DNA of 64,000 bases, taken from NCBI RefSeq assembly GCF_988242995.1, contig NZ_OZ547043.1; one strand, written 5' to 3'. A program made the position numbers and the translations under genes. How positions within the stretch are numbered: the stretch's first letter is position 1; every line of letters starts with the position of its first letter. The notes under the pieces were generated by a model, which was not told the origin of the DNA, made no database searches, and saw only the letters and a program-made list of their open reading frames with translations. This document shows positions 26,536 to 28,015 of this stretch, piece after piece.

Positions 26536-26558
26536 CTAGTGCCGGATGCGACGCCGGT
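26536..26558. repeat. Left half of a REP palindromic unit split by the IS insertion
   Basis: ctagtgccggatgcgacgccggt immediately 5' of the IS terminus; the complementary half follows the other IS end. Confidence 0.7.
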
Positions 26559-26590
26559 TGAACTGAACCCCAAAACCTGGACAGTTTCAG

Positions 26591-27313
26591 TTAACCGGCT
26601 TTTTGATGCTCAGTCCGGTATTCTACCGGACTGAGTCCCCCAAGACTGAGTTTTATTCTTTTTTGATTCCAGTAAGTTATGTATTCGTTAACGGCATTTT
26701 CCAGCTCTTCTACATTTCTGTAGTCCCGGCGATAGTACATTTCTTCTTTCAGGTGACCAAAGAAGTTCTCCATTACCGCATTATCAAGGCAGTTGCCCTT
26801 GCGCGACATGCTCTGCACTAACCCTCTGTCCGCCAGGGCGGACTGATAACTTTTTATCCGGTAATGCCATCCTTGATCACTGTGGAGCAGCGGTTTCTCC
26901 CCTTCAGCAAGGCTTTCCAGCCCCTTATTTAACATCCGCTTCACCAGCTCCTCTGTAGGCCTGCAGGCCGTTTCCCACGCCACGATTTCCCCGTTAAACA
27001 AATCAAGTATCGGGGACAGGTACAGTTTTTGTCCGCCAGCCCTGAATTCGGTGATATCTGTCACCCATTTCTCACAGGGAGCTTCCGCTTTGAACTGTCG
27101 CTGAAGGATATTTTCTGCAGCGAGTCCCATATTTCCCCGGTAAGACCGGTATTTCTTCAGGCGCACAGGAGACTTCAGGCCGAGCTGTTGCATCAGTTTT
27201 CGCACCGTTTTGCCACTGAACTTAAGACCTCTTTTCTGAAGCTCACAATGGATCCGCCGGTACCCATAACATCCCCGGTGTTCATGGAAGATGGAGGCTA
27301 TGAGCTGTTTCAC
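26591..27313 (-). CDS. IS3-family transposase OrfB (DDE integrase catalytic domain); probably expressed as an OrfAB fusion by -1 frameshifting
   Basis: ORF with the DDE-type motifs of IS3 OrfB (…HSDQGWHY…SMSRKGNCLDNAVMENFFG…); the same frame stays open upstream to about 27464, into the orfA 3' end. Confidence 0.85.
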   Translation of the reverse strand: MKQLIASIFHEHRGCYGYRRIHCELQKRGLKFSGKTVRKLMQQLGLKSPVRLKKYRSYRGNMGLAAENILQRQFKAEAPCEKWVTDITEFRAGGQKLYLSPILDLFNGEIVAWETACRPTEELVKRMLNKGLESLAEGEKPLLHSDQGWHYRIKSYQSALADRGLVQSMSRKGNCLDNAVMENFFGHLKEEMYYRRDYRNVEELENAVNEYITYWNQKRIKLSLGGLSPVEYRTEHQKAG

Positions 27314-27417
27314 ATCAGCATACTTGTCCTTAGCCTTCTGCAGTGACAGCTGGTAGTACAGCGTGCTTCTGGCCAGCCCTGCAGCCTTTAACAGGTCAGA
27401 CTGGCAGTGTCCGCACC

Positions 27418-27939
27418 TCAGGCTCCGGATGACTTTCGTTTTTTCTCCAGCTCCTGGCGCTTTTTTTCCAGGAGATGCTCCTGCATGGCTTTCAGATATG
27501 CATTTTCTGCGCGAAGATAACGCAGCTCATTCTTCATCTCTTCCGGCGTCATGTTTGCCTCGTTTTCATGGGTATCATCAGAACGGGTCATGCTTTTCTC
27601 CTTCCTGCGCCTGATAAAGGCCTCATTACCAGATTTGCGGTAGCCTTTTATCCAGTTTTTAACCGTGTTGTGGCTGGGAATGTTAAACCGGGCAGCTACC
27701 CGGGGTAGAGACTCAGAATGCCCGAGAGCATAAAGAACCACGCAAAGTTTATCTTCAGGAGAATAGCTACGCTTGTGTCTGCAATCCAGTGCCCGAGGAC
27801 CGTGAAGAAGAAAAAGATTAATCCAGTGTGAGAGGCTGGTGTGAGAAAGTTGAAAGAGTTTTGCCGTAGAAATGATGCCTGCATGACCAGCCAGGTAATG
27901 ATTTACAGCGGCAAGTTTTACTTCAAATGAATGTTTCAT
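27418..27939 (-). CDS. IS3-family transposase OrfA (helix-turn-helix plus leucine-zipper region), about 173 aa
   Basis: ORF beginning MKHSFEVKLAAVNHY with a C-terminal coiled-coil-like region (LRYLRAENAYLKAMQEHLLEKKRQELEKKRK); the slippery site GAAAAAAAG sits near its 3' end (about 27458..27466). Confidence 0.85.
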   Translation of the reverse strand: MKHSFEVKLAAVNHYLAGHAGIISTAKLFQLSHTSLSHWINLFLLHGPRALDCRHKRSYSPEDKLCVVLYALGHSESLPRVAARFNIPSHNTVKNWIKGYRKSGNEAFIRRRKEKSMTRSDDTHENEANMTPEEMKNELRYLRAENAYLKAMQEHLLEKKRQELEKKRKSSGA

Positions 27940-27990
27940 AAACTGCACCTTCAGATGTCAGATTATGTCCAACATTTGGGGTGCAGTTCA

Positions 27991-28015
27991 GGTCGCGTCT
28001 TATCCGGCCTTCCTG
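27991..28015. repeat. Right half of the REP palindromic unit split by the IS insertion
   Basis: ggtcgcgtcttatccggccttcctg; its reverse complement pairs with the left half at 26536..26558. Confidence 0.7.

Follow-up and report, generated by a model that had tools for sequence, protein, structure and literature searches.

An intact and probably recently transposed copy of IS1397 in the folA–apaH REP of an Escherichia coli strain

REP-targeting insertion sequences and the folA–apaH locus

IS1397, an IS3-family insertion sequence of Escherichia coli, was reportedly described by Bachellier, Clement, Wilde and colleagues between 1997 and 2003 (work cited in PMC1525189). Its published length and duplication size are in line with the 1432 bp and 3–4 bp encountered here. 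The element has imperfect terminal inverted repeats of about 25 bp, carries orfA and orfB with a −1 frameshift, inserts into the middle of REP palindromic units, duplicating 3–4 bp, and is multicopy in natural E. coli, K-12 being without an intact copy. The copy analysed in this work is alike in all of these respects and differs in nothing structural, its site alone setting it apart. The nearest comparison within K-12 is IS150 (insJ/insK; 1443 bp), which has the same IS3-subgroup architecture and whose InsK is 51% identical to the OrfB studied here with the same DDE layout, whereas OrfA is only 27% identical to InsJ. We know of no REP-loop specificity for IS150.

REP-specific insertion of IS1397 in E. 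coli has been experimentally proven, with the specificity set by the transposase, according to PMC1525189, and supplementary file 13 of the same study holds a mid-REP IS1397 insertion in CFT073. The same paper also presents ISKpn1 of Klebsiella pneumoniae and ISPsy8 of Pseudomonas syringae as IS3-family elements whose transposase steers insertion into the palindromic units of the host (PMC1525189); these differ from IS1397 in that each is directed at the kind of REP found in its own host. Outside the family, REP-specific insertion is reported for IS621 and ISPpu9 of the IS110 family (PMC1525189; PMC12288879). These differ in using an unrelated DEDD-type recombinase and another mechanism, with neither terminal inverted repeats nor the typical duplication.

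The DNA considered here is a stretch of 64,000 nucleotides (the window), in which an earlier note had recognised an IS3-family element inside a REP palindrome downstream of folA at 26536–28015. That range takes in the element together with the two halves of the split REP, the element proper being shorter (Table 1). Judged on its sequence, it is almost certainly an intact, probably recently transposed IS1397, an E. coli insertion sequence of the IS3 family (IS150 subgroup). Nothing in its behaviour departs from what has been described for this known element; it is a textbook copy at a site that is new but unremarkable.

Table 1. Coordinates in the window of the element, its parts, the insertion site and the neighbouring genes.
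Feature	Position	Strand	Remarks
IS1397, complete element	26559–27990	−	1432 bp; boundaries read from the sequence
Left inverted repeat (IRL), orfA side	27966–27990	−	TGAACTGCACCCCAAATGTTGGACA
Right inverted repeat (IRR), orfB side	26559–26583	−	plus strand reads TGAACTGAACCCCAAAACCTGGACA
orfA	27418–27939	−	173 aa + stop; helix-turn-helix DNA-binding protein (Pfam)
Slippery heptamer A_AAA_AAG	27460–27466	−	orfA frame; element positions 525–531; predicted −1 programmed frameshift site
orfB frame	26591–27460	−	−1 relative to orfA; 289 codons + stop; catalytic DDE domain
Target-site duplication copy 1, GGT	26556–26558		direct reading; K-12 alignment
Target-site duplication copy 2, GGT	27991–27993		direct reading; K-12 alignment
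folA-side half of the split REP	26541–26555		GCCGGATGCGACGCC
apaH-side half of the split REP	27994–28008		CGCGTCTTATCCGGC
folA (dihydrofolate reductase)	26037–26516	+	intact; stop about 40–42 bp from the element
apaH	28029–28871	−	intact; stop 38 bp from the element; transcribed in the transposase direction

Anatomy and identity of the element

The terminal inverted repeats are 25 bp long, share 21 of these positions and end in the TG...CA termini of the IS3 type (TGAACTG...CAGTTCA), so that both the repeats, ending 5′-TG...CA-3′, and the length, within about 1.2–1.55 kb, are those of the IS3 family. A search of the window for the 25-nt end sequence gave a single occurrence, against none expected from shuffled sequences, and a repeat search returned a 43-nt inverted repeat made up, on each side, of a REP half and an IS end. 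Within the 3′ end of orfB and near the right inverted repeat, two perfectly matching 12-bp inverted arms enclose a loop of 3 nt (CTCAGTCCGGTA ttc TACCGGACTGAG; window 26609–26635), and inspection of both strands found no T-run after this hairpin.

The two transposase frames overlap and, read directly, are uninterrupted by stop codons; as is typical of the IS3 family, they stand in phases 0 and −1 and share a slippery heptamer. The ATG of orfA is preceded by a Shine-Dalgarno-like GAAGG, and its product matches the Pfam families HTH_28 (9e-18) and HTH_Tnp_1. The −1 frame is open from the heptamer to the stop at 26591, and frameshifting there is predicted to give an OrfAB product of 449 aa. OrfB matches HTH_21, rve (1.6e-21) and rve_2, with rve_3 likewise listed, and scores 329.8 bits (2.4e-98) against the NCBIfam model transpos_IS3, for which the cut-off is 160. 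A motif scan of the 449-aa OrfAB places the catalytic residues at D295, D355 and E391, followed by K398; this is a DD(35)E arrangement, in which 35 residues separate D355 and E391 and a lysine stands at position +7 from the glutamate, where IS3-family transposases have K or R. RefSeq annotates identical copies with a coding sequence at element positions 52–1400, in two joined pieces labelled “programmed frameshift”, and the start, join and stop that were derived for the window copy are those of the RefSeq annotation of the fetched copies.

Identity was addressed by nucleotide search (megablast) against 5426 complete E. coli genomes. The full-length matches agree with the element DNA at 99.9% over 1432 of 1432 bp, and RefSeq labels every one of them “IS3-like element IS1397 family transposase”. 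The predicted 449-aa OrfAB is identical in every residue to WP_100190663.1, which carries the same label; the exact OrfAB sequence is recorded in the protein collection under the IS1397 name, and it is the commonest RefSeq protein. Five other copies each differ from the window copy at one nucleotide, at a different position each time, and the window copy is therefore the consensus of the copies. By the ISfinder convention, copies are the same element when they diverge by less than 5% in nucleotides or less than 2% in amino acids. The name is used here by proxy for the ISfinder type sequence, on the strength of RefSeq/PGAP labels and of behaviour.

This dependence on RefSeq labels, together with an OrfB close enough to InsK to indicate a common subgroup, might be taken to mean that the copy belongs to another member of the IS3 family, be it IS150, ISKpn1 or an unnamed relative, and merely resembles IS1397. 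The identity of OrfB to InsK does place the element in the IS150 subgroup, yet the OrfA and OrfB values taken together mark it as clearly not IS150. Near-identity of the DNA and full identity of OrfAB to the RefSeq-named IS1397 speak against any other element, as do the targets, which are E. coli-type REPs of the kind reported for IS1397 in PMC1525189, and we consider a mere look-alike exceedingly improbable. The identification as IS1397 is in keeping with the earlier note, which had described a 1432-bp element with imperfect inverted repeats of about 25 bp and overlapping orfA and orfB frames with a slippery heptamer (read here as A_AAA_AAG at 27466–27460), had found its proteins unlike InsJ and InsK, and had named stops in the transposase frames as evidence of a dead element; all of these descriptions were borne out and both frames are open.

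The insertion site and REP targeting

Between folA and apaH, which are transcribed towards each other, there is only one REP palindromic unit, and the element sits inside it, flanked directly by the two halves of this REP, gccggatgcgacgcc and cgcgtcttatccggc. Removal of the element and of one GGT yields GCCGGATGCGACGCCGGTCGCGTCTTATCCGGC, a restored REP of 33 nt that folds into a hairpin whose loop is the 5 nt CGGTC (dG −11.9 kcal/mol, z −3.15), and the duplicated GGT is the centre of this loop. The two flanks align to K-12 positions 23771–50344 and 50342–58177, the alignments overlapping by exactly 3 bp, GGT; because of this exact overlap, the duplication is real and not a chance repeat. The reconstructed empty folA–apaH interval, 716 bp long, is 100.0% identical to that of four complete genomes (NRZ14408, KE55, OW967178 and LT599825), and a single GGT is present in these four empty sites as in K-12. 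Altogether the reconstructed interval is contiguous in 4884 genomes. The GGT duplication of 3 bp, a size within the 3–4 bp of the IS3 family, and the precise splitting of a REP palindrome, both put forward in the earlier note, are therefore upheld from both flanks, from the K-12 overlap, from the empty-site match and from the restored hairpin with GGT in mid-loop.

Among the 5426 complete E. coli genomes, not one has the site filled. An exact search of metagenome contigs with the folA-side junction gave no match, and none of the ten places returned for public assembly contigs encoding OrfA was at folA–apaH. Over 6.5 kb on the left side of the insertion the best-matching genomes are 99.6% identical, which places the source strain outside the collection of 5426 genomes. 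The uniqueness of the filled site among these genomes points to a recent event, and from the sequence the folA–apaH insertion looks both strain-specific and recent.

A site filled nowhere else could also be produced by assembly, if a repeated IS had been collapsed or misplaced into the folA–apaH REP; IS1397 is multicopy, with up to 40 places per genome, and REPs are repeats too. Against this, the element joins its flanks cleanly on either side, and the 3-bp duplication is perfect and coincides precisely with the loop of the REP, a signature that a mis-join would not yield and that indicates true transposition. We therefore give an artefact next to no weight and treat the insertion as genuine.

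A further 21 copies, at about 18 other loci, were taken from RefSeq genomes and public assemblies. In all 21 the REP unit is split at its centre, in agreement with the account of IS1397 in PMC1525189, and this answers the question of the earlier note as to whether further copies each lie inside a REP. The duplications are of 4 bp in 12 copies, of 3 bp in eight and apparently of 2 bp in one, and both orientations relative to the REP were found. The loci include mobB/rrf, msrQ/zinT, yphB/yphA, gsk/ybaL, caiF/caiE, cysE/trmL, ygcP/ygcQ, phnK/phnL and a tRNA-Pro site. Where other copies match the folA–apaH locus, the match does not stop at the IS ends but continues for about 19–20 bp into the REP halves. 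The window itself holds about seven unoccupied REP units (at 10916, 10969, 15373, 15412, 35843, 35891 and 42869), and one of these, the caiF–caiE REP at 10916–10947, is empty here while the orthologous REP of strain PCN033 holds IS1397.

Distribution, activity and consequences for the host

Full-length IS1397 is present in 1707 of the 5426 complete E. coli genomes, nearly always on the chromosome, and genomes with any match have between 1 and 40 places (median 1). The exact OrfA protein was found in 13,393 blocks of a public assembly collection. An exact scan with IRL over one genome for each of 100,044 species returned one divergent genome named E. coli and one Microbacterium contig, and no exact-match spread beyond Escherichia was evident at this sampling. 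The latter sequence, NZ_CACSKB010000521.1 of Microbacterium sp. 18062, is a contig of 415 bp in which 212 bp match the left end of IS1397 at 100% identity; most likely the assembly was contaminated with E. coli DNA. The E. coli-named species representative SCPM-O-B-8794 has a fragmented IS1397 whose left end still adjoins a REP half. Disrupted copies were seen elsewhere as well, some of them interrupted by an IS110-family element: in two copies of GCA_900149875.1 a gene for a 358-aa IS110-family (DEDD) transposase follows orfA in the usual place of orfB, the IS ends of one of the two being 2803 bp apart, and one copy in GCA_000692635.1 is 1791 bp long.

No full IS1397 is found in K-12 MG1655, MC1061 or BL21(DE3), which hold only a 65-bp fragment. 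This relic of the orfB-side end, identical at 62 of 65 positions, is shared with about 1,780 other complete genomes. It corresponds to window 26559–26623 and to 1501–1565 of the extracted yhhI–yhhJ locus of K-12 MG1655, where it is unannotated; it begins 9 bp past the yhhI stop codon (yhhI being the ISEc1 transposase gene) and extends to the tip of the IS, which still adjoins a REP half, TAAACGCCTTATCCGGCC. Its truncation point lies in the loop of the 26609–26635 hairpin. The arrangement suggests an old REP insertion that was truncated in connection with ISEc1. The statement that IS1397 is absent from K-12, as made in the earlier note, thus holds for intact copies but not strictly, since the end relic persists, and the assignment of the host to a non-K-12 lineage agrees with full IS1397 occurring in natural isolates and no full copy in K-12 MG1655.

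The window departs from K-12 at several other places. Between thiB/sroA and sgrR there is an insertion of about 1 kb and low GC (0.40–0.44) at 51702–52711, with an ORF at 51907–52476 (+) encoding 189 aa that RefSeq annotates as the T3SS effector EspY2 (espY2) and that is present in 1034 of the 5426 complete genomes; a Pfam search with this protein gave no match. Downstream of sgrS, setA (about 1.26 kb) is missing (window 54657–54698), and yabP/yabQ, which take up about 1.5 kb in K-12, are replaced by about 120 bp at 35826–35946 that hold two REP units in opposite orientation (35843–35875 and 35891–35920).

How the element would move can be outlined by analogy, the copy-out-paste-in scheme of the IS3 family being established knowledge from IS911, IS2, IS3 and IS150. 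A −1 ribosomal frameshift at A_AAA_AAG would yield the 449-aa OrfAB DDE transposase, which, as in those elements, would act by copy-out-paste-in transposition, cutting one strand at one end and joining the cut strand to a point some 3 nt beyond the opposite end. This intermediate would then be resolved by replication into a circle in which the two ends abut and which would integrate into the target, while OrfA alone would have a regulatory role. The window copy shows the signature of a 3-bp staggered cut at the REP loop along with intact ends, the heptamer and the DDE triad. The transposase itself would recognise the target, as reported for IS1397 and ISKpn1 in work cited in PMC1525189.

Signals for expression are less conspicuous than the coding frames. 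A promoter and terminator scan of 26400–28150 called no promoter and one terminator-like site, fewer than in shuffled sequences. A simple scan finds a −10-like hexamer, CATAAT, within IRL and a weak −35 (TGAACT) at its extreme tip, where the stricter scan reports no promoter, and the junction of a simulated circle (IRR + 3 bp + IRL) offers nothing better than this weak resident promoter. Downstream of the heptamer a hairpin is predicted with z = −1.75 relative to shuffles, beginning at the last base of the heptamer; given this score and this starting point, it is unconvincing as a frameshift stimulator. The lack of a strong promoter call and of a convincing stimulator would fit a structurally complete but inactive, fixed copy. 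Weak promoters are, however, usual in insertion sequences, and a fossil is hard to reconcile with two open frames, perfect ends and duplication, a sequence that is the consensus of the other copies, a protein that is the commonest in RefSeq and a site whose uniqueness argues for a recent event. A fossil is accordingly thought very unlikely, and the preferred reading remains that of an intact and probably recently transposed element.

For the host, consequences are expected to be small. The genes folA and apaH converge on the insertion site and both coding sequences are intact; since, in addition, no gene lies downstream of either, polar effects are unlikely, and outward promoter effects are unsupported because the scan of 26400–28150 called no promoter. 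The earlier note had raised polar or promoter effects on folA and apaH as a potential concern, and from the gene arrangement these seem unlikely to matter. The main change would be loss of the REP hairpin common to both 3′ ends. In addition, the rsmA–apaG–apaH transcript might read through into the transposase genes in the sense direction, and transcription out of the orfB end might run antisense to folA, which encodes dihydrofolate reductase, the target of trimethoprim. A broader proposal, which we regard as unlikely, is that the folA–apaH REP is an unrecorded IS1397 site at which hairpin loss and antisense transcription may alter the stability of the folA and apaH mRNAs and, separately, that IS1397 was ancestral to the K-12/B-type lineages and then lost; for the latter part, the presence of the 65-bp relic with its REP half in K-12, in B strains and in about 1,780 others would mean that the element was ancestral and later lost rather than never acquired.

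Overall, the folA–apaH copy matters little beyond annotation and brings no new mechanism. The sole new point appears to be that the site is filled in no other complete E. coli genome searched, and the filled site can serve as a strain-specific marker (0 of 5426 complete genomes). To judge from its sequence, the element would also identify its host as a natural E. coli other than K-12 in which IS1397 is probably live. Beyond this, the locus adds one more clean case in which an IS3-family transposase has cut a REP in its hairpin loop, and for which the empty site provides an exact control. IS1397 is a useful system for studying target recognition by a DDE transposase where the target is a structured repeat.
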